From positions 65,697-129,696 of the forward strand of contig CAVUQF010000002.1 of assembly GCA_963743615.1 (NCBI GenBank): a stretch of 64,000 nucleotides of DNA. Reading direction: 5' to 3'. Under the pieces are notes generated by a model. It was not told where the DNA came from. It made no database searches and worked only from the letters and a program-made list of their open reading frames with translations. Position 1 is the first letter of the stretch. Every line of letters begins with the position of its first letter. Origin of the DNA: an uncultured Nanoarchaeota archaeon. GTDB taxonomy: Archaea; Nanobdellota; Nanobdellia; Pacearchaeales; GW2011-AR1. Positions 3,442 through 58,017 of this stretch are shown here, piece by piece. The position numbers were made by a program, and so were the translations under genes.

Positions 3442-3442
3442 T

Positions 3443-4762
3443 TTATTTTCCGGGTTGTTTAAATCTTAAAAACATTAAGAATACAAAATTTATTAATGCC
3501 ACTCCGAATACCATAATAAGCGAAATTGCTGTGGTGCTTAAGGAGATTCCAAGCCCGCTAACCTGTATCATCATAAAAAGCAGCATTAAAATCATTGGTG
3601 CTGCAATAACTACGCTTATGTAGACATCAATGAATGTTTCAGAACTTCTTGTAGATCTCTCTCTTTCAAGTCTATAATCAAGAAGGAGACTCTCCGATCT
3701 CTTATCAAAAAATTCTCCCAAGTCTCCACCAGAAGTTATATTTGTGGCTAAGCTGTTATACAAATCAGTAAGTTTTTTACTTGGGCAGTAATCCGCTGTA
3801 TTCCTAAGGGCAGTAACCAGATCATGTCCGTATATGTTTACTTCATTCATTACCTTAGTAAACTGTTTTTTAAGATTAGGGTATTCTTCTCCCGTTGATA
3901 CTATGATCTTGAAGATGTTCGTTGGCTCTATCTTAGAACCTGCGATAGCAGACATATTTATTGTTGCAAATGGCAATTCCTGATCTATGTTTGTTTCTAA
4001 TGACTTTCTTTCAAGTGAAGGATAAAAGTAAAGGAAGACAAAAGTTAGTATTGGTAGTATAAATAAGATCCAGAATAGTTCCAAAAATCTTGATATTATA
4101 TTTGTTGCAGGGACTATAAAAGGAGGAGTTGCACTTAGGTTAAAGAACAAAAAAAACAGGAATATAACTAGCGCTACTACCAGAGAAATGAATACTGAGA
4201 GAAAAATTATTGAGATATAGACAGGTGGTATAAAACCAAGATTAGTTTTGAGTAAATCATTGACCATTCCTGAAAAATTCTTGCTTTCAACCAAAGGTCT
4301 TGAAAAATCCGAGAACAATCTGCTTGCAACTCCTGCATATTTATTTGGCCCCTTTCCTACTTTTTTTGCTATTTCTTCCTTCTTTTTCTTCTCAATCCTC
4401 TTGATTATATTTTTTTCAGATCTTGAAATTCTATATTCTCTTGTAAGTTTACTTTCTTCCTCCATTTTTTCGAAGAAATTTTTCTTTGGGACTTTTTTCT
4501 CCTTATCTTCGTTCAGAACTTTATCAATAGTTTTTTTGTTATCCTGATGATCAAGAATTTTAGTCAGATTGATATTATTGATAAATTTTGGAGCTTTATC
4601 ATTTTCAATCTTTAGATTTTGCTTCAATGAGTTTATGTGAGAGGATATAATGGAGTCACTATTTTTAGAGTGGACTACGGAGGTCATCTCATTTACTATT
4701 TTTTTCTCTTTAGATATTATTTTTTTAAGCTCTAGGAAATCACTATTTTTTTGAAAAATCAT
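3443..4762 (-). CDS. type II secretion F-domain membrane protein (TadC/FlaJ-like), with a ~150-aa lysine-rich N-terminal extension
   Basis: T2SSF domain: LPFATINMSAIAGSKIEPTNIFKII...YGHDLVTALRNTADYCPSKKLTDLYNSLATNITSGGDLGEFFDKRSE. The N-terminus is K/E-rich and predicted coiled coil. Its stop is adjacent to the start of the previous gene. Confidence 0.7.
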   Translation of the reverse strand: MIFQKNSDFLELKKIISKEKKIVNEMTSVVHSKNSDSIISSHINSLKQNLKIENDKAPKFINNINLTKILDHQDNKKTIDKVLNEDKEKKVPKKNFFEKMEEESKLTREYRISRSEKNIIKRIEKKKKEEIAKKVGKGPNKYAGVASRLFSDFSRPLVESKNFSGMVNDLLKTNLGFIPPVYISIIFLSVFISLVVALVIFLFFLFFNLSATPPFIVPATNIISRFLELFWILFILPILTFVFLYFYPSLERKSLETNIDQELPFATINMSAIAGSKIEPTNIFKIIVSTGEEYPNLKKQFTKVMNEVNIYGHDLVTALRNTADYCPSKKLTDLYNSLATNITSGGDLGEFFDKRSESLLLDYRLERERSTRSSETFIDVYISVVIAAPMILMLLFMMIQVSGLGISLSTTAISLIMVFGVALINFVFLMFLRFKQPGK

Positions 4763-4956
4763 TTTAAAATATCAGAAATTTTGCTGTTTATTTGGAGAAT
4801 AAATTTCTTTGTTTTGTTAAGATCCTCAGGATTGCTTTTTTTATAAAATTCTTCGAGTTTTTTTTCGGAATCATCAAGAGAGCTTATTAGCTGCCTGAGC
4901 TGTAACACTTGCTCCCCAATCTTGTTTTTAGAATTTTTATCATCCTCTTCTTTCAT
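4759..4956 (-). CDS. small coiled-coil hypothetical protein within the pilus operon
   Basis: 65 aa and K/E-rich. It overlaps its neighbours by 4 nt. Confidence 0.3.
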   Translation of the reverse strand: MKEEDDKNSKNKIGEQVLQLRQLISSLDDSEKKLEEFYKKSNPEDLNKTKKFILQINSKISDILK

Positions 4957-4999
4957 CTGAAGAAAAAGTGAATTCTCTTATTAAATATTTTGTTCTTAA

Positions 5000-6568
5000 C
5001 TATGCTGCAATATTAAACTGAGCTAATACTTCCTTTGGTTTTTTGTAATATTCATTTATAACATCTTGAACTTTTTTGAACTCAAATATCTTTCTCTTGA
5101 ACAATTCATAGATAAGTTGGGTTCTTATTCTAAACTCAGACTCAAGGTCCCTAGTATTTATTCCGTATCTATTAGAAATTTTCTCAAAAACTTTGCTATT
5201 TTTTTTAAAGTAAAAGTCATCGTCTGAAGGGTTCCAGACAAAGGGGGTGTTTGTAAGTGCAATTCCTTCGGAACTTACGTCTATAAGCTCAACAATTTCC
5301 CTCAAACGTCTTGTCTCTTGTTTATTGACAATCGCGTGTGTCATAATACAAACACAGTCTAGGACATTAAGAAGAGTTGGAGGAAGTTCTATAGGAGGAG
5401 TTTCTAGTCTTCTGATAACACTTTCAACGGAATCGGAGTGTATCGTACTCATTGAAGAGTGCCCCGAAGCCATACCTTGGAATAGTACAGATGCTTCTCT
5501 CCCTCTGACTTCTCCCACAATGACATAATCAGGATTTTGCCTGAATGAACTTCTTAATAAGTCAAACAAGCTTACAGAGCCTATTCCTCTTATCCCAGAT
5601 GATGATCTTGAAACACTAGGAAGCCAGTTTTCTCTTGGGAGGTTTAGCTCTCTCGTATCTTCAATACTTACAACTCTTGCTTCAGGGGGTATGAAGAATG
5701 CGACTGCGTTTAGCAAAGTTGTTTTTCCAGAGGATGTTCCCCCTGTAATTAGTATATTCATCTTGTACTGTATTAAAAGCCATAAATATGCAACCATTTC
5801 TGGACTTAGTGTATTAAAGGAAACTAATTGAGGGGGAGTCCATGGTTCTTTAGTGAATTTTCTTATAGTAAATGTTGGGCCTCTACTTGTAATATCTTTT
5901 GTGTATGTCGCATTTACTCTGCTTCCATCTGGGAGACTTCCATCAAGAATCGGATTTGCATATGAAATATACTGTCCTGATCTCTGGGCTAGTTTTTCTA
6001 CAAATCCTTCCAATTTGTCCATATCTCTAAATATTATATTTGTCTTCATATTTCTATACAGTCTGTGGACAATGTAAACAGGAGTATCTGCTCCGTTATT
6101 TTCTATATCTTCAATAAAATAATCTCTTAGCAGGGGCTCGATCTCATTAAATCCGATGAAATCTCTGCAAAGATAATAGTAAATTTTTTTATAACTTTCA
6201 TAATTAATATCAATTCCTAATTCAATTAAGAGAAATCTAAATCTCTGATCAATATATCCTAACAGCCCTTCGAGATCGTTCTCTACAATAATATCAAAAT
6301 TTATCATTTCTCTCATTGCATTGAGTATCCTTCTCCTGTAGTCTTCTTCCCTCATATTCAACAAAGGCTCCTCAATCTCATAGACAACTTCGTATATTTT
6401 TGGATCCCAGTATATATGCGCAAATGCAAAGGGGGAGATCAAACAGTACCTTACATCAATTTTACTTTTATCCTCTATCCTACTCATGTGGGGGATCTGA
6501 GGAGAAAAGTCTATATCCACCTTAGGAAAATTTTCTATTCCAATTCTTTTTTGTTCTTGTTCTGGCAT
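5000..6568 (-). CDS. type IV pilus/archaellum assembly ATPase of the FlaI/TadA/VirB11 family
   Basis: Walker A ILITGGTSSGKTTLLNA, followed by SIEDTRELNLP and the His box. The 522 aa length is typical of archaeal FlaI/PilB-like ATPases. Confidence 0.85.
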   Translation of the reverse strand: MPEQEQKRIGIENFPKVDIDFSPQIPHMSRIEDKSKIDVRYCLISPFAFAHIYWDPKIYEVVYEIEEPLLNMREEDYRRRILNAMREMINFDIIVENDLEGLLGYIDQRFRFLLIELGIDINYESYKKIYYYLCRDFIGFNEIEPLLRDYFIEDIENNGADTPVYIVHRLYRNMKTNIIFRDMDKLEGFVEKLAQRSGQYISYANPILDGSLPDGSRVNATYTKDITSRGPTFTIRKFTKEPWTPPQLVSFNTLSPEMVAYLWLLIQYKMNILITGGTSSGKTTLLNAVAFFIPPEARVVSIEDTRELNLPRENWLPSVSRSSSGIRGIGSVSLFDLLRSSFRQNPDYVIVGEVRGREASVLFQGMASGHSSMSTIHSDSVESVIRRLETPPIELPPTLLNVLDCVCIMTHAIVNKQETRRLREIVELIDVSSEGIALTNTPFVWNPSDDDFYFKKNSKVFEKISNRYGINTRDLESEFRIRTQLIYELFKRKIFEFKKVQDVINEYYKKPKEVLAQFNIAA

Positions 6569-39632: not shown

Positions 39633-40208
39633 ATGAATATTAAAGATGTAAAAACTGCCTTTAAAGTTGCAGATGTAATCCTTGAAAAAGAACATCCGAT
39701 AAGACGTATAAGATTTGTTTTCCTTGATGAAATCTATGATGAACATAGAAAGAGATTAAATAACGATGTTCTAAAGGATAATTCTGGTAGAATTTATCTG
39801 ATTGTTGTGAATGGTCAAATAATGAAAATTGGTGGCTCACAAAGTAAGGGAGGGATAAAAAGCACACTATCCTTTTATCAGGGAGGATTACAAGGCGGTC
39901 CAAGTATCAGGACCTATGGAATTCATATTCTATTGAGCGAAGAACTTGAAAAAGGAAAGAAAGCAGAAATTTATATGATAACTTCTCAAAGAGCAAGGAT
40001 GAAAGTAAAGGGTCTATTTAGTGAAGATGAAACGGAAGTTTCGGCATTTAAGGATATGGAAGATAAATGTAAAAAAGATTATGTTGATAAAGAAGGCACT
40101 TATCCTCCTTGGAATTTTCAGGAGAAGGGAGAACCTTGGAGAGAAGATATAACACGAGGATTAAATATACACGGTAGCAAAAGGAAAGTCTTGAATAAAA
40201 ATAACTAA
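39633..40208 (+). CDS. hypothetical protein, a candidate restriction endonuclease partner of the adjacent MTase
   Basis: 191-aa ORF convergent with the MTase, overlapping it by 4 nt. No motif is assigned, so the call rests on context only. Confidence 0.3.
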   Translation: MNIKDVKTAFKVADVILEKEHPIRRIRFVFLDEIYDEHRKRLNNDVLKDNSGRIYLIVVNGQIMKIGGSQSKGGIKSTLSFYQGGLQGGPSIRTYGIHILLSEELEKGKKAEIYMITSQRARMKVKGLFSEDETEVSAFKDMEDKCKKDYVDKEGTYPPWNFQEKGEPWREDITRGLNIHGSKRKVLNKNN

Positions 40209-41182
40209 TTTCTTGGTGGGCAATAGATTAAAATTTCGTGAGAACCTTTGATATTGCTTTCAGTTCCATTATCAATTCTATTCTTTCCTATCCTTGTTTC
40301 TCCTTGACCCATAGTATATTGCCAAATTGGAAATAATTGCTGAAATTCTTTGTAATATTCTCTTATTGTTGGACAATCATTATAAGACAAGATAAAACCA
40401 CCTTTATGCTGTTTCAATAAATCCCTTAAAACTTCGTGGGGAAATCCTTTATGATGAACAGGAATATTTCTCATAGGATAAATTCCTTTGAACATTTTAG
40501 AATCTGGTCCGATATAGTAAGGTGGGTCCAAATACATAAAATCATTTGGATATTTTTTAAGAGTATCTTGGAAATCTGCCTGTTCAACTTTCAAGTTTCC
40601 TGGTTCAAAATCTCTAATTTTTTCTATTATCTTTTTATATCTCTCTGGTTTTAGATAAATATCAGAACTCCAACCCATAAAACCAGGACCATAAGACAAA
40701 TTAAAATTATAAACATAATAAATAGCAAGGGTTAATGGGTCTAAAGTAATCTCTTTTCTCCAGACCTGATTTAATATTTTTCTTATCCTTTCAAATTCTT
40801 CTTTGGTAGGTTTTAACTCCATTAACTTTTCATAGAGAAGTTTTGGATTTTCTATTTGATATTTCCAATAATTACATAGAATATCAAAAATCTCATAACC
40901 TCGGACTTCAATATCAAGATATTTGCTCATAGCAATTTCAACAGAGCCACCACCAAAAAAAGGGGATATAACTCTTGTTACATTATCTGGCAATAGTTCA
41001 AGAATATGCCCAACAGCTAAACTCTTGCCCCCTGCATATCTTATCGGAGAAACAGGGACTCTCTTGTATTTGTTCATACTCTCTGGGTTTTTACTTCTTA
41101 TGCTTTCCAGAAAATCTCTCCTCTTTTCAGTATCCATATTTATCTCATTCTCTTTTGTCTTTTTAACTTTTCTGACTTGCAT
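40205..41182 (-). CDS. Dam-class (alpha, D12) N6-adenine DNA methyltransferase
   Basis: PIRYAGGKS; motif I ISPFFGGGSVEIAM; motif IV FMYLDPPYY. The likely true start is Met at ~41077. Its 5' end overlaps the transposase gene by 20 nt. Confidence 0.85.
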   Translation of the reverse strand: MQVRKVKKTKENEINMDTEKRRDFLESIRSKNPESMNKYKRVPVSPIRYAGGKSLAVGHILELLPDNVTRVISPFFGGGSVEIAMSKYLDIEVRGYEIFDILCNYWKYQIENPKLLYEKLMELKPTKEEFERIRKILNQVWRKEITLDPLTLAIYYVYNFNLSYGPGFMGWSSDIYLKPERYKKIIEKIRDFEPGNLKVEQADFQDTLKKYPNDFMYLDPPYYIGPDSKMFKGIYPMRNIPVHHKGFPHEVLRDLLKQHKGGFILSYNDCPTIREYYKEFQQLFPIWQYTMGQGETRIGKNRIDNGTESNIKGSHEILIYCPPRN

Positions 41183-42113
41183 TATATATTAACTCCAACC
41201 ATTTATTTTCTGAATTTAATATTAAATCAGTAGCTAATTCATAAGGACAGCAATTCAAACTTTGATGTTTGGTTATGAAATTGTAATAAACTTCCCAACC
41301 TTTCATAATCGCATTTGCAGAATTTACAGAACCGTGAAATCCTCTGAAAGTTTTAGTTCGCTGTCTAATATTATTATGCAATCTTTCAACCATAATATTG
41401 AACCCTTCGCCACGAGAAGCATTAACTTGATTATGGATTACATTTACTTGATGTGTTTTATTTGAATATCCAAAAACTTTCTTTATTGCATTAGGATAAG
41501 CCATAAGTCCATCAGTAGTTATGACTTTGATTTGTTCTCCTGTCTTGATTTTTGTTGCTTTTAGGATTTGCTTAATGTTTCTCTGTTCTCTGTGCTTTAC
41601 AAATTCAGAAGCAACCATATAACGAGTTTCAGTATCTATGGAATCAATAAACCAATTTCTATCTACTCCTCTTTTGTTGTGATATTTTCTTCTGGAATAC
41701 TCCATTTCATCAACTTGCAGTTCGCTACCGACATTCAGCTTTAAGCTGTTTGTAAATTGAGAAATCATCTTGCCATATTTCACAATCCACTTATAGATTG
41801 ACTTATGACTGGAATTATGAGGGTAGAATGCCTTAAAGTGTTCCTGAACCTTTCTGGTGCTAACTCCTCTGTAGAATAAGTCAATAGCACAAGTTATCTT
41901 TTGAGGGGCATTTCTCATTCTCTTGAAGCCATCATCAAGAACAAATGTGTTTAAGCAATCTTTACACTTATATCTTTGAATTAGACCTCTATTTTGGGTT
42001 TTTCTTCTGCACCACTTAATTGTGCTGTTGCTCTTGCATTTTGGACATATCATTTTGTTTTCCATAGTATAATTCGGTATCCGAACTATATATATCTTTC
42101 GGTATCCGAACAT
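41163..42113 (-). CDS. IS6-family-like DDE transposase with an N-terminal zinc-finger extension
   Basis: The C-terminal region (ITTDGLMAYPNAIKKVFG...HNQVNASRGEGFNIMVERLHNNIRQRTKTFRGFHGSVNSANAIMKGWEVYYNFITKH) follows the IS26/IS6 pattern. The N-terminus carries CPKCKS...CKDC. Confidence 0.7.
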   Translation of the reverse strand: MFGYRKIYIVRIPNYTMENKMICPKCKSNSTIKWCRRKTQNRGLIQRYKCKDCLNTFVLDDGFKRMRNAPQKITCAIDLFYRGVSTRKVQEHFKAFYPHNSSHKSIYKWIVKYGKMISQFTNSLKLNVGSELQVDEMEYSRRKYHNKRGVDRNWFIDSIDTETRYMVASEFVKHREQRNIKQILKATKIKTGEQIKVITTDGLMAYPNAIKKVFGYSNKTHQVNVIHNQVNASRGEGFNIMVERLHNNIRQRTKTFRGFHGSVNSANAIMKGWEVYYNFITKHQSLNCCPYELATDLILNSENKWLELIYNASQKS

Positions 42114-42187: not shown

Positions 42188-42790
42188 ATGCCTAATAGTG
42201 AGTATATATCATTCTGCCATCGTTGTTATCACACTTGGAAGAGAAGACGAGAAGAACTTCCAAAAGTCTGCCCAAAATGTAAAAGTCCTTACTGGAATAA
42301 ACCAAAGAGAATTGCTCAAAGATTAATTCTTCCAACTTCCGAAACTATAATTAAAATCCATGATGAGATAATAAGAAAAAGTGGAGGTGAATTGGGTATA
42401 AGAGAAGATGGAGGAATACATAACTCTATTCTTAAATTACTGAATCATCAACAAAAGAACAGGAAGAATCCTGAAAGTATAGGTGCTTTTGCTTTAAACG
42501 AATTTGCTAAAAGACACTATTTTATAGATGGTAATAAAAGAATAGCTTATGCAGTAGCTAAAATATTTATGCTCATAAATAGATGTCATCTAAAAACAAA
42601 ATATGGTGAAGCTACTGAATTTATTAGAGAGGTAGCTAAATATCAAAGCAAAATAGACCTTCCAGAAATTAGGAATTGGTTTAAAGATAACAGATGTGAA
42701 ATAATTACCGAGAAAGAATTAGAAAACTATTTAAGTAGAAACTACTTTGATTTAGTATTTGAAGAGGAAGGGGGGCAAAATGGAAGATGA
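42188..42790 (+). CDS. Doc/Fic-family toxin (death-on-curing) with an N-terminal Zn ribbon
   Basis: The Doc motif HYFIDGNKRIAYAVAKIFML has the form HxFx(D/N)GNKR. The N-terminal CHRC...CPKC forms the Zn ribbon. Confidence 0.75.
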   Translation: MPNSEYISFCHRCYHTWKRRREELPKVCPKCKSPYWNKPKRIAQRLILPTSETIIKIHDEIIRKSGGELGIREDGGIHNSILKLLNHQQKNRKNPESIGAFALNEFAKRHYFIDGNKRIAYAVAKIFMLINRCHLKTKYGEATEFIREVAKYQSKIDLPEIRNWFKDNRCEIITEKELENYLSRNYFDLVFEEEGGQNGR

Positions 42791-43653: not shown

Positions 43654-46600
43654 TTATTTCTTTTCCTTGGACTCTTTCGTCAAAGGTCCAGAAACTTTTA
43701 CAAATAATCCAGGAAGTCCAGTACCAACAGGGATAGGCTGATTCAGAATTATATTTTCAACAACACTTGCAAGTTTGTCTTTGCTTCCTTTTATCGTTGC
43801 ATTTACAAACTGTTTAACTGGAGTCTCAAAAGTTGCCCTTGCTAGTATTGAAGATTTCTGAGAGATAATTCCCATTCTGGTTACCCCTGACACAACTCCC
43901 GTATTTGTCATAGCATCAGCGACCAGTTTCAAATGTCTCTTGTCTATATCTAGACCCTGATTGTTCAAGACTTCGTATATTTCATTCATTATAAGTTTTC
44001 TTGCAGATTCAATTCCGAAAACATCTGCTACTTCATAAGGATCATTTGAAATTAACTTTTCGACATCCACTTCCTTCAACTTTATTATTTCCTTCAAATT
44101 TGTTCCCAGAGTGAGTATAACAAAGTCCTTATCTCTCTTTACAATCAATATCTGGCTGACATTCTTTATTCCCGAGATTATTGTTCTCTTAAGTTTTTCC
44201 TTCAACTGATAAATTTCCTTGAAATTCAATTCTGCTGCGTCTATAACAATGGAATCTTCTTTTTCTTTTATCTTGTACCCAGATTCCTTAAGTTTTTCTG
44301 TAATCTTATCTAAAGAAGTATGAACATGCTTTAATCTTTCTTTGTTAATAATAATTTCAATCTTCTTATCGCTGAAATTTAATTTGATTTCATCCGAAAC
44401 TTCTTCTATCTTTACTTCTTTTATTTTCTCAGCAATAATTCTTGCATCTTTTTCATTGTTGAAGTTCTTGTTCAAGTAAATTTCCATCTTTGGAGATGTT
44501 GGCTTCTTTCTTGCATCAAATATTTCAATTAATCTTGGAAGTCCTTGTGTAACCTGCATTTCGGATACTCCTGCGAAGTGGAATGTTCTCAAAACCATTT
44601 GCGTCGAAGGTTCTCCAAAAGATTGTGCGGTAACTATTCCTATTGCTTCTCCTGGTTCTAACTTTCCATCTTTAAGATGAAGTTTTGAAACATCCAGTCC
44701 ATCTCCACCATACTTGAACTGAATAATGCTACCATTACTGTTTCTTACCGTTCCATCATATTCTTCTCTTAAATCCTGTAGTGCGCTTGCAAGTCTTCTG
44801 TATAAATATCCGGATTTAGGAGTTCTTAATGCAGTATCCATAAGAGAGGATCTTCCAGTCATTGCCTGGAAGAAGAATTCTTCTGGCTTAAGACCATCCA
44901 TAAATGAACTGTTAATGAATCCTCTTGCCTTTGGAGATAAATCTCCCTTTTTGAAGAAAGATAATGTTCTGTCATTAAATCCTATATCAATTCTCTTTCC
45001 TTCTAAATCTTGCTGTCCTACAGAGCAAGCCATTTGGGTAATATTAAGAATATTTCCTCCGCTTCCTGACTTGATCATATATGAAACCGGGTTATCTTCA
45101 GGGAACTCTTCTTTGACTACTTCACTGATCTTTGATCTGACCTCATTTAGTATCTGCAATATCTTAAGTTCTCTTGACTCCTCTCTTGTCTTTCCAGGTA
45201 TTATCTCAAGACTTTTATTGTTGTAAGATTCAATTATTTCTTCTGTTTTCTTTTCAGCATTCTTGATTATCTTATCTTTTTCTTCAAGAACTTTCTTTGA
45301 TACATCAAGGTCTCCTACCGAAATTGTGATTCCTCTATTTGTCAAATATTTTGTTCCTAGAGCATAAGCCTTTTTTAGTGTCTCAAAGATTACATCTCTT
45401 CCAAGTTCTCTATCAATAACTTTTACCAAATCTCCTTCCTCATCGCTGAAAATTGTTTTGTTAAGTATTCCACTAACAACTTTTCCATCCTTAATTTTTA
45501 CAGAATCATTTTCAAAACTTATCTCCTTTGGAAGAACATGTGAGAATATCTCCATCCCTGAAACTTTCTTTCCTTGTGAGCCATTGAAGATTCCACACTT
45601 GTAAAGAAGATCATCCGCAAAATCCTTTGAGAACTGTCCAAGTCCGAGTAGATATCCTCCGGTTATTGCATCCCCTGTGCATCCAATTAAATTGGTATTG
45701 TTCTTTGGGGAAATCAGATTTTTCTTTATATCCAATAGAATTCTTGCTTCTGCTCTTGCCTCTTCAGTCTGAGGAGAGTGAATATTCATTTCATCCCCAT
45801 CAAAATCCGCATTATAAGGAGGTACAGCGGCAGGGTGAACTCTGAATGTTCTTCCCGGAAGAACTCTTACGAAGTGGGCCATCAGGCTTCCCTTGTGAAG
45901 GCTTGGGTGTCTGTTGAATAAAACAACATCTCCGTCCTGAAGGTGTCTTTCGACTTTATATCCTGTAATTATTTCATTTATTATTTCATCCTTTAGCTCC
46001 GGAGTAATCTTTTTTCTCTTCCCGTCTGGTCTTATAACATAATTTGCACCGGGATAATCCTCTCCTTTTAAGATAAGTTTTTTCAAATTATCTATGTTCA
46101 GATCATTAACAGTCTCGCAAACAGTTATCACCTTTGCAATTTCATAAGGAATACCTATTTCATTTATTTCAATGCAAGGATCAGGAGAGATGACGGTTCT
46201 TGCGGAATAATTAACTCTCTTTCCTGCAAGGTTCTTTCTTATTCTTCCCTCTTTTCCTTTGATTCTTTCCGTGATTGTCTTTAATGGTTGTCCGCTTCTA
46301 TGCCTTGCGGGAGGAATTCTTGAAACAGTATTATCAAAGAATGTTGTTATATGGAACTGCAATAAATCCCAAAGATCTTCTATAATAACTTCAGGAGCTC
46401 CGGCATTAAGATTCTCCCATAATCTTTGGTTTGCTCTTATTATATCTGATAGTTTGTGAGTCAAGTCATCTTCACTTCTCTCTCCACTTTCAAGAATAAT
46501 ACTTGGACGCACAGTTACAGGAGGAACAAGAAGGTATGTTAGTATTGCCCACTCAGGTCTTGAGCTTGTAGGATCAACCCCTATCTTTTTTAGCTCTTCA

Positions 46601-47178
46601 TTTGAAATATTTTCAAGAAGTTCTCTTACTTCATTTGGAAATAATCTCTTCTTGCCAATGTAGAAACTAGTTGGCTTATCAACTTTTATCTTCTCATGGT
46701 CAGCTCCGCAGTAAGGGCATTTCTTTACGTCCTTTGCTTTCTTGGCTCTTTCACTTTGAGAATATTTCTTTAGATTTTTATCATCAAGAAGCAACTTTCC
46801 GCATTTATGGCAGAAGCATCTTAGCCCCATTTCAATCAAAGGGACATACTTCAAGTGTACAACCGGTCTTGCAAGCTCAATTCTTCCAGGGTGTCCAAGG
46901 CATTCTTTTAATCTTCCCCCACATGTTCTGCATCTTACACCCGGATCAATTGCTCCAAGTCTTAAGTCCATTAATCCTCCATCAACAGGGTAACCATCGA
47001 CATCATAGAGCTCAGGTGTTACAATCTTCGCAGCCGAGATTTTTTTAATCTCTTCCGGACTAAATAAAGTGAATTTTATCTCTCCAATTTTCTTTCTTAT
47101 TATTTGTGGATACATTTTATTCGTATTTGTTCTTAAGACCAAATTTAGTATGGATATGTAATCCTTGAAGTTCTTCAA
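43654..47178 (-). CDS. rpoA: DNA-directed RNA polymerase largest subunit; the A' and A'' regions are in a single ORF
   Basis: The N-terminal clamp Zn motif RCRTCGGRLKECLGHPGRIELARPVVH and the catalytic NADFDGDEMN are A' features. The C-terminus ...ILNQPIPVGTGLPGLFV is A''-like. The ORF is continuous over 1174 aa. Confidence 0.9.
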   Translation of the reverse strand: MKNFKDYISILNLVLRTNTNKMYPQIIRKKIGEIKFTLFSPEEIKKISAAKIVTPELYDVDGYPVDGGLMDLRLGAIDPGVRCRTCGGRLKECLGHPGRIELARPVVHLKYVPLIEMGLRCFCHKCGKLLLDDKNLKKYSQSERAKKAKDVKKCPYCGADHEKIKVDKPTSFYIGKKRLFPNEVRELLENISNEELKKIGVDPTSSRPEWAILTYLLVPPVTVRPSIILESGERSEDDLTHKLSDIIRANQRLWENLNAGAPEVIIEDLWDLLQFHITTFFDNTVSRIPPARHRSGQPLKTITERIKGKEGRIRKNLAGKRVNYSARTVISPDPCIEINEIGIPYEIAKVITVCETVNDLNIDNLKKLILKGEDYPGANYVIRPDGKRKKITPELKDEIINEIITGYKVERHLQDGDVVLFNRHPSLHKGSLMAHFVRVLPGRTFRVHPAAVPPYNADFDGDEMNIHSPQTEEARAEARILLDIKKNLISPKNNTNLIGCTGDAITGGYLLGLGQFSKDFADDLLYKCGIFNGSQGKKVSGMEIFSHVLPKEISFENDSVKIKDGKVVSGILNKTIFSDEEGDLVKVIDRELGRDVIFETLKKAYALGTKYLTNRGITISVGDLDVSKKVLEEKDKIIKNAEKKTEEIIESYNNKSLEIIPGKTREESRELKILQILNEVRSKISEVVKEEFPEDNPVSYMIKSGSGGNILNITQMACSVGQQDLEGKRIDIGFNDRTLSFFKKGDLSPKARGFINSSFMDGLKPEEFFFQAMTGRSSLMDTALRTPKSGYLYRRLASALQDLREEYDGTVRNSNGSIIQFKYGGDGLDVSKLHLKDGKLEPGEAIGIVTAQSFGEPSTQMVLRTFHFAGVSEMQVTQGLPRLIEIFDARKKPTSPKMEIYLNKNFNNEKDARIIAEKIKEVKIEEVSDEIKLNFSDKKIEIIINKERLKHVHTSLDKITEKLKESGYKIKEKEDSIVIDAAELNFKEIYQLKEKLKRTIISGIKNVSQILIVKRDKDFVILTLGTNLKEIIKLKEVDVEKLISNDPYEVADVFGIESARKLIMNEIYEVLNNQGLDIDKRHLKLVADAMTNTGVVSGVTRMGIISQKSSILARATFETPVKQFVNATIKGSKDKLASVVENIILNQPIPVGTGLPGLFVKVSGPLTKESKEKK

Positions 47179-52773: not shown

Positions 52774-53097
52774 TCAGAGATTTTTCTTCAATTTTTTCTC
52801 AAAATCTTCAAGGTTTACAGCTCCAACGAATCTTTCAGAAGCCTTTCCATCCTTGAACAGAATAAAATTAGGTATTGACATAACATCAAATTTTTGCGCA
52901 AGCTTATTGTTCTCATCAACATTTATCTTCCCAAATTTAACTTTCCCTTTGAATTTGTCAGAAAGCTCTTCAATAATTGGAGCCATCATCAAGCAAGGCA
53001 TACACCACTCCGCAAAGAAATCAATCAAGACATTTCCATTTTTTATGAAACTATCAAACTCCCCGCTTGTTAATTCGGGTACCTTATCATTTGCCAT
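52774..53097 (-). CDS. trxA: thioredoxin
   Basis: WCMPC active site; 107 aa. Confidence 0.85.
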   Translation of the reverse strand: MANDKVPELTSGEFDSFIKNGNVLIDFFAEWCMPCLMMAPIIEELSDKFKGKVKFGKINVDENNKLAQKFDVMSIPNFILFKDGKASERFVGAVNLEDFEKKLKKNL

Positions 53098-53160: not shown

Positions 53161-54198
53161 TTATACATTATTACTTTTTTCAAAGAATTCTATAGCTTTC
53201 AGGGCTTTTTCCTTGGTATTGTTGAAAATTTCAGGGTGGTTTGCTATCTCTTGGGCCAAGAACCACTTAAGTTCTGTTCCTTCATCCGACTTATCTAGGA
53301 TTTTACCTCCGGATATTCTGCCCAAGTATGAAATGTTTATATGATGATGATCTGGCTTGATTATATCTATTTGAATATCAAGGTTTTGTGGCATATTGCT
53401 ATATTGCATCTCTCTTGGATTTATTAATTCAATATCATATCCGGATTCTTCTTTTGCCTCTCTAATTGCACAATCTGAAGGAAGCTCGTTTTTCTCAACA
53501 TGTCCTCCTAGAGGTACAAATTTGTTCACTTTTCTATTCCATGTAAGCAAGACTCGACCCCTGTCTACAACATAAACCGTAGATAAAAACTCTCTTGTTA
53601 TCTCCTTATCTTGTAATTCTTTAAGAGGTTGGGATTCTCCAAAATTAAGGTACATTCTGCTTTCCTGAATCTTTTCTGCACCTAGATATTTACTGTTTAA
53701 TCCTTCGGACCCGTAAGGCTTCTCGCAGTCAGAATCCAGCTCCTCGAATGCTATTTGCGCGATTTTCATTCCAGGATACAGCTTTATTGGTAGAGGGCTT
53801 GCATTATGTAGCTCAAGAGTCAGTTTGAGACAGTTGCCTGGATCCAGAAACCCTGCGGTGGTGTGTATAAGAAGTCCAAGTCTTGCAAGGGAGCTCTTTC
53901 CTTCCAATCTCCCAACATGTCTCTTGTCCACCCCGGTCTTTTCTTTTATCAGCGCCAGTGCAAAGCTTCCGGGATGAAGAACAAAATATCTATCATCTTC
54001 TATATACACTTCTTCCATAAATCCTGTAACAGGTTTCTTTGTATCTATAACTTCTGTTTCATGGGGTTTGTAAATCTTGAATTCATTTCCTAGGTGAAGA
54101 TCATAGCTTGCAGGCTGTAAGTTCTCGGGATTAAACGGTTCAATCATTATTTCACCTGTTTTAACTTTCTCTTTTATCGACCTATCACTAAGTATCAT
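53161..54198 (-). CDS. dcd: dCTP deaminase (Dcd/dUTPase fold) fused to a C-terminal NUDIX hydrolase domain
   Basis: The N-terminal MILSDRSIKEKV...ASYDLHLGNEF...GLLIHTTAGFLDPG is the Dcd signature. The C-terminal GGHVEKNELPSDCAIREAKEESG is a NUDIX box. Confidence 0.75.
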   Translation of the reverse strand: MILSDRSIKEKVKTGEIMIEPFNPENLQPASYDLHLGNEFKIYKPHETEVIDTKKPVTGFMEEVYIEDDRYFVLHPGSFALALIKEKTGVDKRHVGRLEGKSSLARLGLLIHTTAGFLDPGNCLKLTLELHNASPLPIKLYPGMKIAQIAFEELDSDCEKPYGSEGLNSKYLGAEKIQESRMYLNFGESQPLKELQDKEITREFLSTVYVVDRGRVLLTWNRKVNKFVPLGGHVEKNELPSDCAIREAKEESGYDIELINPREMQYSNMPQNLDIQIDIIKPDHHHINISYLGRISGGKILDKSDEGTELKWFLAQEIANHPEIFNNTKEKALKAIEFFEKSNNV

Positions 54199-54241: not shown

Positions 54242-54514
54242 TTAACCAATCAATGTTGATATGAACTTATATCCGAACCAAACGAGCATGAGATAGTAAA
54301 TGAACGAGGACACGTGGAATATTGCAACAATTATTAAGTATATTCCAAAAACTGCGTCAATACCACTCATTACCTCCCTGAAAATTGCAAATTTGAAAAT
54401 TAAATATGATCCTCCCGCAACAAGAAGATAAGTTGAGTATACTATATTGAATTGCGCAAGTGAAACTGCGGTGAAAGAAATCAGATCAAGTATCATCAAT
54501 ATCCAGACTATCAT
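54242..54514 (-). CDS. small membrane protein
   Basis: 90 aa with 3 TM segments. Confidence 0.3.
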   Translation of the reverse strand: MIVWILMILDLISFTAVSLAQFNIVYSTYLLVAGGSYLIFKFAIFREVMSGIDAVFGIYLIIVAIFHVSSFIYYLMLVWFGYKFISTLIG

Positions 54515-54529
54515 TTGAAAATTGCTTTG

Positions 54530-55063
54530 TTAAAATTCTATTCCTTTTCTTGCAAGAATTCCTTTGTCATAAGGGTGCTTTAGTTTTTTTACTTCAGAAA
54601 CGTAATCTGCTATGTCTTTTAAGGATTGTGGGTAATCTCTTCCAGTAAGAATAAGTTCTGTGTTTTTTGGTTTATTAACTATCAGATCAATTCCCAGAGA
54701 TTCGGGAATAACATCCCAATTGATTCCTGGCCCAAGTTCATCAATAAGAACAACATCATAATCTTTAAGATCAGAAATTGCATCGTTCCAGAATTCCATG
54801 AAATTTTTTGTTAAATCTTCCTTTTGGCTTTGGTCATAGTTTTTGAAGTAAGGATGTAGTGGCTTGAACTGTAAATAGTTTACATTTAATTTTTCAAAGA
54901 AAAACTGTTCTCCAGTATCTCTCTTAAATAACTGTATTATTTTGACTTTTAATCCTCTTCCTAATGCCCTCACAATAAGACCCATCCCTGCAGAAGTCTT
55001 TCCCTTTCCCTCCCCCGTGTAGATATGAACAAGTCCGAGATTTAATCTTTCATTATCTTCCAT
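54530..55063 (-). CDS. CobA/CobO/BtuR-type cob(I)alamin adenosyltransferase
   Basis: GLVHIYTGEGKGKTSAGMGLIVRALGRGLKVKIIQLFK matches the family's P-loop N-terminus. Confidence 0.7.
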   Translation of the reverse strand: MEDNERLNLGLVHIYTGEGKGKTSAGMGLIVRALGRGLKVKIIQLFKRDTGEQFFFEKLNVNYLQFKPLHPYFKNYDQSQKEDLTKNFMEFWNDAISDLKDYDVVLIDELGPGINWDVIPESLGIDLIVNKPKNTELILTGRDYPQSLKDIADYVSEVKKLKHPYDKGILARKGIEF

Positions 55064-55069
55064 ATTTTT

Positions 55070-57553
55070 TCAGCTGCATTTGCTATATCCACAGTCAAAG
55101 CATGTAGGTTCAGAGCATCCTGCAACCATACCTACGTTCGAGCTAAAGCATTTAGGGCAATGAAGTGCAGAGTTATTGTCAATTGTCTTTACAGTCATAT
55201 CATGTCCACCTATCTCTTGATTTATTACTTTTATTTTTCCAGTCTTGACAAGATGATTTCTTAGTGCAACAGAGATAGCATGTGCCACGGAATCAATTTT
55301 ATTCTTTCCAAAACCAAAAGGTCTCTCAGATTTTATTGAATTGAGATGTTTGAGAATTCTTACAGGATCTCCCCCAAGTTCAAAATACTTTGAAAGTAGG
55401 ATTGAGACTGCTGTAGCCATGCCTGAGATTTCTGTTCCTGTTGGAGAAAGATTTGCAAATACTCTTGTCGGACCATTCTCATCATAATTTATGTGTATAT
55501 GCATAGGCCCCTGACCCGTTTCAATGAGGTAATAATCCGCCTTTTCCTCTGTGGATTTTTCCTTCGCTTTCTTTTCCTCCTTCTTATCATTAATATTCAG
55601 AACTTGGAATTGCTTGCTTCCATCTCTATAGACCGTAACACCCTTTGCCCCATTATCAAATGCAAGCATATAAGCATCCTCAACATCTTTTTCTGTTGCA
55701 TCATTTCTCATGTTTACTGTTTTGGAAACTGCATTGTCTGTGTATTTTTGGAATGCACACTGCATTAGTACATGCTCCTTGGGATTTAGATCGTGTGAAG
55801 TCAAAAATAAATTTTGTATCTTTTCCGGAATTTCCTTAATCCCAACAAGAGATTTGTGATTGTCGCTTATCCTTATGTAAAGTTCTTCTTTTCTCATTCC
55901 AAAGTAGTTGTTTTTGTCTGCAATTTTTTCAAATAAAGGATTTACTTCAAAAAATGTATCTTTCTCTGCAGGAGTCTGTCCTTTCTTTAGTGCATCTATT
56001 CCGGCGGCATTGTATCTTACATAAACAACGGCAAAGAATGGTTCAATTCCTGCGCCTTGCAAGCCTGCTGTAATTCCTATTGTTCCCGTTGGGGCTATAG
56101 TTGTTCTTGCAGAATGCCTTGGAAAGAATTCTTGTCCTCTAAAAAACATGCTGTCTTTGTCAAAGATTGAGCCCTTCCATGCTGGGAATACCCCTTTGTT
56201 TTCAGCTAACTCCTCTGATGCATTCAAGCAGGATACGTTGATAAATTCCATTAGTTCTTCAGCTTTTGAAAGTGCTTTTTGGGAATTATAAGGGATACCA
56301 AGCATTACAAGAGATTCTGCCCATCCCATAACTCCGAGTCCTATTCTTCTTGTTTTCTTCGCCATCTCCTCAATCTCGGGTATTGGATAATTGTTTATAT
56401 CAATAACATTATCTAGAAAATGGGTGCATACAAAAACGCATTTCTTAAGTGATTCATAATCGAAATTACTTCCGTCTTCTTTTACAAATTTTGATAGGTT
56501 TATTGACCCAAGATTACAGGGCTCATAAGGAAGAAGTGGTTGCTCTCCACAGGGATTTGTTGATTCTATCTCACCAAGTTGGGGTGTTGCGTTGCTGGAG
56601 GTCATATTTATTCGATCAATCATTATAATCCCCGGATCTCCTGTTTCCCACGCACCCCTTACAAGCTTCTGCCAAACTTCCTTTGCATTTACTCTTCTAA
56701 CAACCTCTTTGGTTCTTGGGTTAAGTAAATCATATTCTCTGTCTTCTTTTACAGCTCTCATAAACTTTTCATCTATTGTTACAGACACATTGAAATTTTC
56801 CATAACCCCTGGGGTTTTCTTCATATCTATAAAGTCTAAAATATTTGGGTGGGTATAATGCATTATTCCCATATTTGCTCCACGTCTTGTCCCTCCTTGC
56901 TTTACAACCTCTGTTGATTTGTCGAATATTTGCATAAACGAAATTGGTCCTGACGAGATCCCCTTTGTCGTTTTTACCTGATCTCCAGAAGGCCTTAATT
57001 TTGAAAAGGAAAATCCAGTCCCGCCACCGCTCTTATGGATTAAAGCCATATTTTTTACAGATTCATAAATATCTTCTATTGAATCTCCTACAGGTAGGAC
57101 ATAACACGCACTCAGCTGTTGCAGTTCTCTACCAGCATTCATGAGTGTTGGAGAATTTGGAAGGAATTTGAATGTGGACAATAATTCGTAAAACTCCTCC
57201 TCCGTCCTGGAAACTAATTCTGGATTTTTAGTGTAGATTTCTTCAAGATTCTTTACAAATCTCTTGAAATTTTCATCCCGTTTATTATGATTAATTAGCC
57301 CATAGTGAAGAAGGTACATGTGCGCATTTTTTCCATGTGAGTCATAGTTTACATCCTTATAATTTATTCCCGCAAAAATTTCGTCGCTGCTTGCATTACC
57401 GGAACTTAGAATATCTGCAAGGGCAATGTTGTGGCAAATAGTTCTAAACCAAGATTCAACGGTTGGAGAATCTTTCAGGTATTTATTCTTTATTACTTTA
57501 AGCTGATTTTCTGTAAGGTTTAGTTTTGTAAGCTGCTGAAGTTCTGGAATCAT
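55070..57553 (-). CDS. nrdJ: adenosylcobalamin-dependent (class II) ribonucleotide reductase
   Basis: 827 aa with the RNR barrel motifs and a C-terminal Cys-rich tail CPKCFSS...CSEPTCFDCGYSKCS. Its start overlaps the nrdR stop. Confidence 0.85.
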   Translation of the reverse strand: MIPELQQLTKLNLTENQLKVIKNKYLKDSPTVESWFRTICHNIALADILSSGNASSDEIFAGINYKDVNYDSHGKNAHMYLLHYGLINHNKRDENFKRFVKNLEEIYTKNPELVSRTEEEFYELLSTFKFLPNSPTLMNAGRELQQLSACYVLPVGDSIEDIYESVKNMALIHKSGGGTGFSFSKLRPSGDQVKTTKGISSGPISFMQIFDKSTEVVKQGGTRRGANMGIMHYTHPNILDFIDMKKTPGVMENFNVSVTIDEKFMRAVKEDREYDLLNPRTKEVVRRVNAKEVWQKLVRGAWETGDPGIIMIDRINMTSSNATPQLGEIESTNPCGEQPLLPYEPCNLGSINLSKFVKEDGSNFDYESLKKCVFVCTHFLDNVIDINNYPIPEIEEMAKKTRRIGLGVMGWAESLVMLGIPYNSQKALSKAEELMEFINVSCLNASEELAENKGVFPAWKGSIFDKDSMFFRGQEFFPRHSARTTIAPTGTIGITAGLQGAGIEPFFAVVYVRYNAAGIDALKKGQTPAEKDTFFEVNPLFEKIADKNNYFGMRKEELYIRISDNHKSLVGIKEIPEKIQNLFLTSHDLNPKEHVLMQCAFQKYTDNAVSKTVNMRNDATEKDVEDAYMLAFDNGAKGVTVYRDGSKQFQVLNINDKKEEKKAKEKSTEEKADYYLIETGQGPMHIHINYDENGPTRVFANLSPTGTEISGMATAVSILLSKYFELGGDPVRILKHLNSIKSERPFGFGKNKIDSVAHAISVALRNHLVKTGKIKVINQEIGGHDMTVKTIDNNSALHCPKCFSSNVGMVAGCSEPTCFDCGYSKCS

Positions 57554-57554
57554 C

Positions 57555-57989
57555 TTATAATTCTTTCAACTCCTCCTTAAAATCTTTTATATCTTGGAAA
57601 TCTCTATATACAGATGCGAATCTTATGTATGCAACATGATCTAGTTTTTTTATTTTCTTCATTGTCAATTCTCCAATAAATGAACTTTTCACTTCCTTAC
57701 CTTTTTTTCTAACCTGTTCTTCAATCTCTGTTATCATATTGTCGATTTTTTCCTTTGGTACTGGACGTTTTTCAAACGCTTTATCAATACCGTGCTCAAG
57801 TTTTTCCCTGCTGAATTTTTCTCTCCTTCCATCTTTTTTTACAACGTAAAAGTCTTCTCTCTCAATTCTTTCATACGTTGTAAATCTCTTCTTGCACTTA
57901 AGACACTCTCTCCTCCTCCTTATTCCCCCAGGAGACCCTCTCTTATTGGTCACCTTCGACTCTTCACTCAAGCAGTATGGGCACTTCAT
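57555..57989 (-). CDS. nrdR: NrdR transcriptional repressor (Zn ribbon plus ATP-cone)
   Basis: MKCPYCLSEESKVTNKR...CLKCKKRFTTYERIE, followed by an ATP-cone. The ORF track begins at TTG 58007; the MKCPYC start is preferred. Confidence 0.8.
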   Translation of the reverse strand: MKCPYCLSEESKVTNKRGSPGGIRRRRECLKCKKRFTTYERIEREDFYVVKKDGRREKFSREKLEHGIDKAFEKRPVPKEKIDNMITEIEEQVRKKGKEVKSSFIGELTMKKIKKLDHVAYIRFASVYRDFQDIKDFKEELKEL

Positions 57990-58003
57990 AAATATGAACG
58001 TAT

Positions 58004-58017
58004 ACAATATATTGTAC
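58004..58017. promoter_or_regulatory. NrdR-box-like palindrome upstream of nrdR-nrdJ
   Basis: TACAATATATTGTA is a perfect 14-bp palindrome matching the NrdR-box core acaCwAtATaTwGtgt. It sits ~15 bp upstream of the nrdR ATG. Confidence 0.5.

Follow-up and report, generated by a model that had tools for sequence, protein, structure and literature searches.

A dCTP deaminase fused to a NUDIX hydrolase in a ribonucleotide reductase gene cluster of a Nanoarchaeota archaeon

Why would a dCTP deaminase carry a NUDIX hydrolase at its C-terminus? The question is raised by a gene from an uncultured Nanoarchaeota archaeon, which lies in a 64,000-nucleotide stretch of contig CAVUQF010000002.1 (positions 65,697 to 129,696; assembly GCA_963743615.1). 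We call this stretch the window and give positions within it. A sequence-only reading of the window had described a fusion of a Dcd-family dCTP deaminase to a NUDIX hydrolase, in a cluster of genes for the metabolism of deoxynucleoside triphosphates (dNTPs), and had proposed that such a fusion could deliver dUMP by pyrophosphohydrolysis. We confirmed that the in-frame fusion is genuine. The NUDIX half might act on dUTP, dCTP, or both, and a role as the organism's dUTPase in place of Dut seems unlikely.

Is the fusion real? The gene is a single open reading frame (ORF) of 345 amino acids, and models for both domains match it (Table 1). The junction contains no homopolymer, and both of the alternative frames are rich in stop codons. 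A protein with exactly this sequence (P0350) turns up on at least 10 contigs, one of them 202 kb long, and in at least 6 runs or assemblies that are independent of each other. Six of these contigs, which come from different runs and assemblers (ERR11523660, ERZ25039473, ERZ25039486, SRR28003155, ERR11523656, and ERR11571142), all share one gene order. A variant that differs at one residue (P0001) is intact, even though the CobA, RpoB, and RpoA genes on its contig are frameshifted. The fusion is also found in a related lineage: an ortholog from the JGI metagenomes (P0002) is 75.9% identical, has the same length and architecture, and keeps the catalytic residues of both halves. The sole gap between P0002 and the window's protein is 1 amino acid, in the linker, and the frame is kept despite many substitutions across the linker. 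Given identical copies across runs, and an ortholog at 76% identity with all of the catalytic residues, the fusion is under selection.

An argument for a sequencing or assembly error that merged two neighboring genes is that, in a related locus (L169), dcd and NUDIX are two genes with a one-base overlap, a pair that a single indel could merge. But the NUDIX protein of that locus belongs to another subfamily, and its gene therefore does not represent the window's gene in split form. We reject an artifact as extremely unlikely because of the junction, the recurrence on at least 10 contigs, the intact frame of P0002, and the intact P0001. Of the two problems that might have undone the sequence-only reading, neither a sequencing error nor a loss of the catalytic glutamates of the NUDIX half was found.

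The bounds of the linker are given by stand-alone relatives: Dcds stop 4-5 amino acids after ...LNF, and NUDIX proteins begin with M-KITREFLSTVY. Among 5.8 billion cluster representatives, just two clusters combine a Dcd with this type of NUDIX domain, so the fusion is rare. A scan of JGI metagenomes for further fusions gave, among the matches listed, 2 close NUDIX loci and no new Dcd-NUDIX protein. A search of IMG/VR found no close viral relative of the fusion.

Domain models and alignments show that the N-terminal half is a complete putative enzyme of the Dcd family, with the catalytic residues of the deaminase. It covers all of the TIGR02274 (dCTP_deam) model (positions 1-180 of 180, at amino acids 2-182; 182.1 bits vs. 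a cutoff of 92.8) and matches Pfam's DCD family (PF22769, amino acids 2-154, E = 2.7e-48, 164.4 bits vs. a cutoff of 27). S102, R106, and E129 align with S111, R115, and E138 of E. coli Dcd, its catalytic Ser, Arg, and Glu, and all three are kept in P0002. The C-terminal lid segment is intact: the alignment to the enzyme from Mycobacterium tuberculosis reaches residue 188 of 190, and the segment (...SKYLGAEKIQESRMYLNF) is like that of stand-alone relatives.

Does the Dcd half make dUTP or dUMP? Among solved relatives, the M. tuberculosis enzyme is the most similar (2QXX/4A6A/2QLP, 141 bits), followed by E. coli Dcd (101 bits), 4XJC (88 bits), and the DCD-DUT of M. jannaschii (66 bits); the characterized bifunctional enzymes, from M. 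tuberculosis and M. jannaschii, form no single similarity group. The M. tuberculosis enzyme (2QLP/2QXX) is a bifunctional, dUMP-forming dCTP deaminase:dUTPase (PMC4827122, PMC5519681). Its dUTPase efficiency is low (2.75e3 M-1 s-1, or 0.4% of that of Dut), and its main role is to set the ratio of dCTP to dTTP (PMC5519681). In the segment that resembles motif III (A115-G-F-L-D119), the window's Dcd has AGFLDPG, vs. AGFIDPG in M. tuberculosis and AHRIDPG in E. coli. In the open-access literature, we found no sequence rule that separates monofunctional from bifunctional Dcds. The Dcd half falls well short of models for Dut itself (16.5 vs. 102.55 bits for TIGR00576; 28.5 vs. 130 bits for the archaeal NF002598), and its match to PF00692 is marginal (22.3 bits vs. 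a cutoff of 22). The RGxxGFGS motif, which is the P-loop-like arm (motif V) of trimeric dUTPases, is absent from the window's protein.

Other members of this DPANN clade of Dcds have N-terminal partners of their own. Proteins of ~390-400 amino acids have an N-terminal AAA_18 kinase and a C-terminal Dcd (P0034, P0039, P0043-P0053). P0054, from a partial contig, combines a thymidylate-synthase-like fragment, PterinBD-DUF4346, and Dcd, and P0111 has a Cys-rich, zinc-ribbon-like N-terminus of ~270 amino acids before Dcd.

The C-terminal half is shown, by similar comparisons, to be a complete predicted NUDIX hydrolase of the small, MutT-like type, with strong conservation of the box that would bind metal and carry out catalysis. 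It matches PF00293 at amino acids 210-327 (52.1 bits vs. a cutoff of 21.1). The NUDIX box, GHVEKNELPSDCAIREAKEESGY (amino acids 232-254), fits GX5EX7REUXEEXGU exactly, the string that the sequence-only reading had quoted is present, and the catalytic Glu residues are intact and invariant, or nearly so, across the subfamily. None of our family alignments (16, 18, and 69 sequences) shows a change at R246, E247, or E250; E251 does not vary in two of them and is conserved in at least 90% of the 69 members of the largest. (A deeper alignment, A4, placed NUDIX-only rows onto the Dcd half and was discarded.) The family also has a D-H-x-H-I signature, in which H284 and H286 are invariant; 3F6A has HSHID.

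Which NUDIX enzymes is this half most like? An AlphaFold 2 (AF2) model of the NUDIX half is confident (mean predicted local distance difference test, or pLDDT, of 93; predicted template modeling score, or pTM, of 0.88), and Foldseek found 542 NUDIX matches to it in the PDB at E <= 1e-3. The best was 3F6A (template modeling score, or TM, of 0.82), then the Pyrobaculum Nudix protein 1JRK/1K2E, and then generic small MutT-like enzymes, including Ap4A hydrolase, BdRppH, the 5-Me-CTPase 3GWY, MutT2, YfaO/NudI (3OGA), and MutT. By sequence, the NUDIX half also matches 3f6a (E = 1e-19). None of the curated NCBIfam NUDIX families (MutT 8-oxo-dGTPase, NudB, YtkD/RppH, the ADP-ribose pyrophosphatase YffH/AdpP, Deinococcus Nudix) passed; the best scores were 16-22 bits, vs. 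cutoffs of 80-200, and involved the Nudix box only. The subfamily is tight: an exhaustive search gave 1610 matches at E < 1e-3 and just 5 at E < 1e-30. The 3F6A-like family comprises 231 representatives at E < 1e-10. Most members are stand-alone proteins of 145-157 amino acids from Woesearchaeota/Pacearchaeota-type archaea, with some from Patescibacteria.

Elsewhere, this NUDIX domain is joined to other proteins. P0059 and P0085 combine a classical trimeric dUTPase (PF00692, E = 1e-31 to 1e-34) with the same NUDIX domain, 70-76% identical to the window's. (At first sight, these two resemble further Dcd-NUDIX proteins.) In a metagenome-assembled genome (MAG) of a Woesearchaeota, a NUDIX domain that is 64% identical to the window's is joined to an HD hydrolase of the YedJ/YpgQ type (364 amino acids in all; locus L003, 7701-8795; matches to PDB 2pq7, 3gw7, and 5dqv). 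Other partners are MazG-like PF12643 (P0171 and P0157, similar to YpjD/5IE9), MazG PF03819 (P0210, P0213, and P0266), DUF1653, and a second NUDIX domain. More distant architectures include radical SAM (P0320), GNAT (P0307), and AdoHcyase-like (P0304) partners. Every recurrent partner with a known function is, judging from its family, an enzyme that processes (d)NTPs.

Is the dUTPase in the Dut-NUDIX proteins active? In both, Glu replaces the catalytic Asp of motif III (GVIE[HY]TYRGE), which is Asp in every solved dUTPase that we aligned. The same Glu is present in 83 of the 130 trimeric dUTPases that we checked (P0364-P0483, P0059, and P0085 among them), nearly all of which are stand-alone proteins from a Pacearchaeota/Nanoarchaeota/candidate phyla radiation (CPR) clade. 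Since the Glu is a lineage trait, the fused Dut of P0059 and P0085 is probably active.

The genes around NUDIX relatives give further hints. In locus L001, the order is NrdR, ribonucleotide reductase (RNR), a fusion of an AAA_18 kinase and dCMP deaminase, Dut-NUDIX, Tmk, ThyA, and Trx, and L002 is arranged similarly. A stand-alone NUDIX paralog (P0190, 49% identical) is translationally coupled, by a 4-nucleotide overlap, to an upstream cytidylate-kinase-like AAA_18 gene in three independent assemblies. (P0190 and P0001 come from different contigs that happen to have the same length, 20,205 bp.) In a bacterial clade of the wider NUDIX family, which keeps the H-x-H-I motif, the gene adjoins dCMP deaminase in a conserved arrangement; this is a single clade, 68-89% identical within, so the arrangement does not represent several independent events. 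Other NUDIX relatives adjoin RNR (L016 and L059). The associations with Cmk-like kinase and dCMP-deaminase genes would fit dCTP as a substrate at least as well as dUTP.

Two observations about these loci stand apart. The kinase-dCMP deaminase upstream of Dut-NUDIX (L001, 2953-3978; also L002, 2-322) matches PADLOC's "dCTPase" model at 188 bits. Its gene nevertheless belongs to a housekeeping cluster with RNR, Tmk, and ThyA, and the protein may be related, as a metabolic enzyme, to the AvcD-type defense deaminases. At the P0190 loci (L182, 3546-4540; L183; L184), another, unrelated NUDIX gene is found at a distance of 1.6 kb.

Relatives of the window's cluster show how the fusion might have arisen. 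The closest stand-alone Dcd (P0003, 83% identical) is in L169, where the order is NrdR, RNR, an 88-amino-acid ORF, Dcd, NUDIX, Trx, RpoH, and RpoB. The NUDIX gene there (5247-5906, 219 amino acids) overlaps the stop codon of dcd (TAATG), and its product is TM1382/3E57-like, with a 70-amino-acid N-terminal extension and an atypical Nudix box. In L170, from a Pacearchaeota MAG (GCA_042218235.1), Dcd (P0012, 73% identical) is followed directly by Trx, and the NUDIX slot is empty. P0002 lies between NrdD/NrdG and thioredoxin, near rpoH-rpoB (JGI 3300075153). Because the NUDIX gene is separate in L169, missing in L170, and fused in the window and P0002, a NUDIX after dcd is recurrent but facultative. 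Two NUDIX lineages occupy the slot, and the fusion occurs in the lineages of the window's protein and P0002. We propose that neighboring dcd and NUDIX genes in a conserved DPANN cluster, NrdR-RNR-Dcd-(NUDIX)-Trx, were joined. Also in the dNTP cluster of P0002, the upstream gene (3059-5521) encodes an 820-amino-acid fusion of thioredoxin, pyridine-nucleotide disulfide reductase, and Glu/Leu/Phe/Val dehydrogenase.

What might the fused protein do? We favor, with moderate confidence, a two-enzyme deoxypyrimidine polypeptide whose NUDIX half is a pyrophosphatase for dUTP, dCTP, or both, with cleavage between the alpha and beta phosphates, in the branch from dCTP to dUMP. The Dcd half would form the usual homotrimer and deaminate dCTP under feedback by dTTP, and its product would be dUTP, or dUMP directly if it behaves like its closest characterized relative. 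The NUDIX half would cut the alpha-beta bond of dUTP and/or dCTP (and possibly of the diphosphates as well) to give dUMP or dCMP and pyrophosphate. Both halves would then push dCTP made by RNR towards the monophosphate precursors of thymidylate and keep free dUTP low. Because the NUDIX domain is joined ~11 residues after the C-terminal active-site lid of Dcd, each of the three NUDIX sites would be at the mouth of a Dcd site. In the Dut fusions, the NUDIX domain is joined ~5 residues after the motif V arm. These junctions suggest that the active sites of Dcd or Dut and of NUDIX are close together. A deoxypyrimidine role would accommodate both the Dcd fusion (clearance of dUTP) and the contexts with Dut, dCMP deaminase, and Cmk (dCTP to dCMP).

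A broader version of this proposal is that the entire 3F6A-like family is a dedicated dCTP/dUTP pyrophosphatase that supplies thymidylate precursors in many DPANN archaea, CPR bacteria, and other bacteria, and that in the Dcd and Dut fusions it is tethered to the lid, so that the nucleotide is handed from site to site. We consider this version doubtful.

Several results weigh against a deoxypyrimidine pyrophosphatase. First, the nearest homolog whose activity has been tested, 3F6A, is just 30-39% identical to the window's NUDIX domain and prefers guanine nucleotides, on which it is weakly active. In a screen of 74 compounds, its best substrates were 3'-dGTP (1.6e4 M-1 s-1), dGTP, ddGTP, and GTP, with alpha-beta cleavage; activities on 3'-dGTP, dGTP, and GTP were 4e3-1.6e4 M-1 s-1, and the authors judged them to be non-physiological (PMC5158307). 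dCTP was in the library and was not outstanding, and the main text makes no mention of dUTP (PMC5158307). Second, each substrate has a difficulty: a pure dUTPase would be redundant in Dut-NUDIX because the fused Dut is probably active, and a dCTPase fused to dCTP deaminase would compete with it for the same substrate. Third, most of the stand-alone orthologs in Woesearchaeota (from GTDB genomes) do not have neighbors from dNTP pathways, and the argument from the slot after dcd covers NUDIX enzymes generally, instead of the 3F6A-like subfamily, because the NUDIX of L169 is TM1382-like. Fourth, the full-length AF2 model has low pLDDT in the Dcd half and the linker, so the packing of the domains cannot be read from it. 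Finally, all of the fusion partners of the NUDIX domain are also classic house-cleaning enzymes, which a sanitizing function would fit equally well.

In that alternative, which is possible if somewhat unlikely, the NUDIX half is a MutT-like house-cleaner of non-canonical or damaged (d)NTPs that is merely co-expressed with Dcd, and the two halves do not catalyze sequential reactions. The partners from known families (Dut, Dcd or Dcd:dut, MazG, MazG-like, and YpgQ/YedJ-type HD) belong to superfamilies with house-cleaning (d)NTP pyrophosphatases, and the structural neighbors beyond 3F6A and 1JRK are MutT, MutT2, 3GWY, NudI, and Ap4A hydrolases. The weak activity of 3F6A on dGTP analogues, the scatter of stand-alone orthologs over unrelated contexts, and the empty slot after dcd in L170 would also be expected of a sanitizer. 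On the other hand, the 74 compounds screened included 8-oxo-dGTP, 8-oxo-dATP, and many other damaged nucleotides, and 3F6A did not act well on any of these. The scores for MutT and other NCBIfam equivalogs are far under their cutoffs, and the repeated links to cytosine nucleotides (Cmk-like kinase, dCMP deaminase, and Dcd) go beyond generic co-expression.

A stricter form of the dUTPase idea is that Dcd is monofunctional (dCTP to dUTP) and that the organism uses the fused NUDIX, in place of Dut, as its dUTPase (dUTP to dUMP and pyrophosphate). Here the sequence-only reading stood in part: a Dcd-NUDIX fusion does lie in a dNTP cluster, while the idea that the NUDIX half would supply dUMP from dUTP is weakened by five results. 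Dcd and NUDIX are consecutive, whether fused (the window and P0002) or abutting (L169), and NUDIX enzymes with activity on dUTP exist, such as NudI. Also, given the low dUTPase efficiency of the M. tuberculosis enzyme (0.4% of that of Dut; PMC5519681), extra dUTPase capacity would be useful even with a bifunctional Dcd. Searches of the 64-kb window for Dut, ThyA, a ThyX motif, Tmk, and dCMP deaminase found none of them, but 64 kb is too small a share of the genome for dut to be called absent. A co-directional gene 1.1 kb upstream of nrdR encodes a MazG-type pyrophosphatase; its metal motifs (EELGE...EEIIDAIGD) are intact, it has weak PDB matches to YpjD and 4qgp, and it is a candidate for the dUTPase or dCTPase of the organism. 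We consider the strict model unlikely because of this gene, because the same NUDIX is also fused to a probably active Dut, and because the Dcd half is nearest to a dUMP-forming enzyme, with which it shares AGF(I/L)DPG (E. coli has AHRIDPG). The weak activity of 3F6A (Q0TS82) on dGTP and GTP analogues (PMC5158307) and the association of NUDIX relatives with cytidylate-kinase-like and dCMP-deaminase genes also count against it.

It is very unlikely that the window's protein defends against viruses by destroying dCTP upon infection, as in kinase-dCTP deaminase/AvcD systems: although relatives of the Dcd half are fused to AAA_18 kinases, as defensive dCTP deaminases are, and the kinase-dCMP deaminase beside Dut-NUDIX matches PADLOC's model, we reject this reading because the window's protein does not match PADLOC's dCTPase (its sole match, to PDC-S07, is 18.7 bits and involves the Nudix box), has no kinase or sensor domain and no close viral homologs in IMG/VR, and is encoded in a core NrdR-RNR-Trx-rpoH-rpoB cluster that is syntenic across lineages instead of in a defense island.

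The setting of the gene is as the sequence-only reading had it: thioredoxin, CobA/BtuR, RNR, and NrdR are all present and co-directional. The order is NrdR, RNR, CobA, a small ORF, Dcd-NUDIX, and Trx, adjoining rpoH-rpoB, with the genes from NrdR to Trx all on the minus strand and gaps of 1-63 nucleotides. The window has no second copy of NUDIX or Dcd. No gene for a small subunit of RNR was seen in the cluster, and the RNR is consistent with a B12-dependent class II enzyme. A small hydrophobic ORF (84-93 amino acids) lies between RNR or CobA and dcd in all of the syntenic loci, with 23 invariant residues (homologs in L169, 4409-4675, 88 amino acids, and L170, 4689-4970; no Pfam match). The true start of nrdR is likely the ATG at 57989, as chosen by gene callers (144 amino acids), and not the TTG at 58007. 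This would place the palindrome TACAATATATTGTA 13 nucleotides upstream of the nrdR ATG; only its placement is suggestive, because the count of NrdR-box patterns across the window is at chance. A scan for sigma-70 promoters and terminators, which is unsuited to an archaeal host, was also at chance.

Table 1. Positions, within the window, of the Dcd-NUDIX gene, its parts, and the genes and sites around it.
Feature	Position	Strand	Basis or remarks
Dcd-NUDIX ORF, whole	53161..54198	-	345 aa + stop; ATG start; single ORF
Dcd-family dCTP deaminase domain, aa 2-182	53653..54195	-	TIGR02274; residue alignment to M. tuberculosis and E. coli Dcd
Linker GESQPLKELQDK, ~aa 187-198, ~11 aa	53605..53640	-	Between the ends of Dcd and NUDIX homology
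NUDIX hydrolase domain, aa 199-345, 3F6A-like subfamily	53164..53604	-	PF00293, PDB 3f6a, AF2, Foldseek
Nudix box GHVEKNELPSDCAIREAKEESGY, aa 232-254, R246/E247/E250/E251	53437..53505	-	Regular expression match
Subfamily signature D-H-H-H-I-N, aa 283-288	53335..53352	-	H284 and H286 invariant in family alignments
Thioredoxin	52774..53097	-	PF00085, E = 3e-29; 63 nt downstream of the fusion; syntenic in L169, L170, and the P0002 contig
90-aa predicted membrane ORF	54242..54514	-	43 nt upstream of Dcd-NUDIX; no Pfam match
ATP:corrinoid adenosyltransferase CobA/BtuR	54530..55063	-	PF02572, E = 2e-49
RNR large chain with TSCPD C-terminal domain	55070..57553	-	PF02867, E = 4e-127; PF12637
NrdR, Zn ribbon + ATP-cone	57555..58007	-	Pfam
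NrdR-box-like palindrome TACAATATATTGTA	58003..58016	.	Perfect, 14 bp
MazG/PRA-PH-type all-alpha NTP pyrophosphohydrolase, ~99-103 aa	59157..59468	-	PRA-PH 29.7 bits (cutoff 21.3); MazG-like 25.5 bits

More broadly, the window is a core archaeal region (rpoH, rpoB, rpoA, S12, S7, EF-2, and EF-1alpha) with ~35% GC content. Its rpoA (43654-47178) is one ORF of 1174 amino acids, which spans Rpb1 domains 1-5, instead of separate A' and A'' genes. An insertion between the rpo genes and S12 encodes a Dam-like N6-adenine methyltransferase (40205-41182), a DDE/Mutator-type transposase (41163-42113), and a Fic-domain protein (42188-42790).

The Dcd and NUDIX families are both well known, and there is precedent in principle for fusions of house-cleaning pyrophosphatases. 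In the literature on dCTP deaminase and Nudix enzymes, we found no published description of a Dcd-NUDIX fusion, so this fusion is apparently undescribed so far. Why might it matter? The supply of dUMP and the removal of dUTP are essential, for the synthesis of thymidylate and to keep uracil out of DNA. Many prokaryotes do not have a recognizable dUTPase (PMC5122711), and the dCMP that dCMP deaminase uses often has no assigned source. One orphan NUDIX subfamily with Dcd, Dut, MazG, and HD partners, and with Cmk-like and dCMP-deaminase neighbors, is a "Rosetta stone" pointer to a missing or auxiliary deoxypyrimidine activity in ultra-small archaea and bacteria. Dcd-NUDIX is a candidate that is easily assayed, and it offers a hypothesis for the substrates of PDB 3F6A and 1JRK. 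If the entire 3F6A-like family is a dedicated dCTP/dUTP pyrophosphatase, then dUMP supply would gain a NUDIX-based branch, and the origin of dCMP in organisms without a known dCTPase would be explained. If it is merely a generic sanitizer, then this would be a routine gene fusion in streamlined genomes.

How does the fusion compare with known systems? The best solved relative of the Dcd half, Rv0321 of M. tuberculosis (2QLP, 2QXX, 4A6A), aligns over residues 1-188, with no gaps up to 103, and S102, R106, A115, D119, and E129 have the same numbering in both proteins. Rv0321 is a single domain of 190 amino acids that makes dUMP by itself, poorly, while the window's protein adds a NUDIX domain of ~150 amino acids after the lid. 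E. coli Dcd (1XS1) is from the same family, with aligned catalytic Ser, Arg, and Glu, but it has His-Arg before the conserved Asp, instead of the Gly-Phe of the window and M. tuberculosis, and it has no NUDIX domain. As for the NUDIX half, 3F6A (Q0TS82_CLOP1, from Clostridium perfringens) and 1JRK/1K2E (from Pyrobaculum aerophilum) share its GGH...REAKEE(S/A)G box and H-x-H-I motif; they differ in being stand-alone proteins, and are 30-39% identical to it. The Dut-, MazG-, and HD-NUDIX fusions, none of which we found to be characterized, join the same subfamily (70-76% identity for Dut, 64% for L003) or the wider family (35-40%) to a (d)NTP pyrophosphatase. The partner differs from Dcd, and the NUDIX domain is C-terminal to it in all but P0266, where it is N-terminal.

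Other enzymes are similar by functional analogy only, in that they convert deoxypyrimidine triphosphates to monophosphates and pyrophosphate. Phage T4 gp56 is a dCTPase-dUTPase, and human DCTPP1 is a dCTP pyrophosphatase that feeds dCMP deaminase. Unlike the C-terminal half of the fusion, neither of these is a NUDIX protein. (PMC13139568 also covers human DCTPP1.) E. coli NudI (YfaO) is distant from the window's NUDIX domain (TM of 0.63, 20% identity) and has low efficiency on canonical dNTPs, but it is a NUDIX enzyme that is active on dUTP, dTTP, and dCTP (PMC5389931, PMC5158307).

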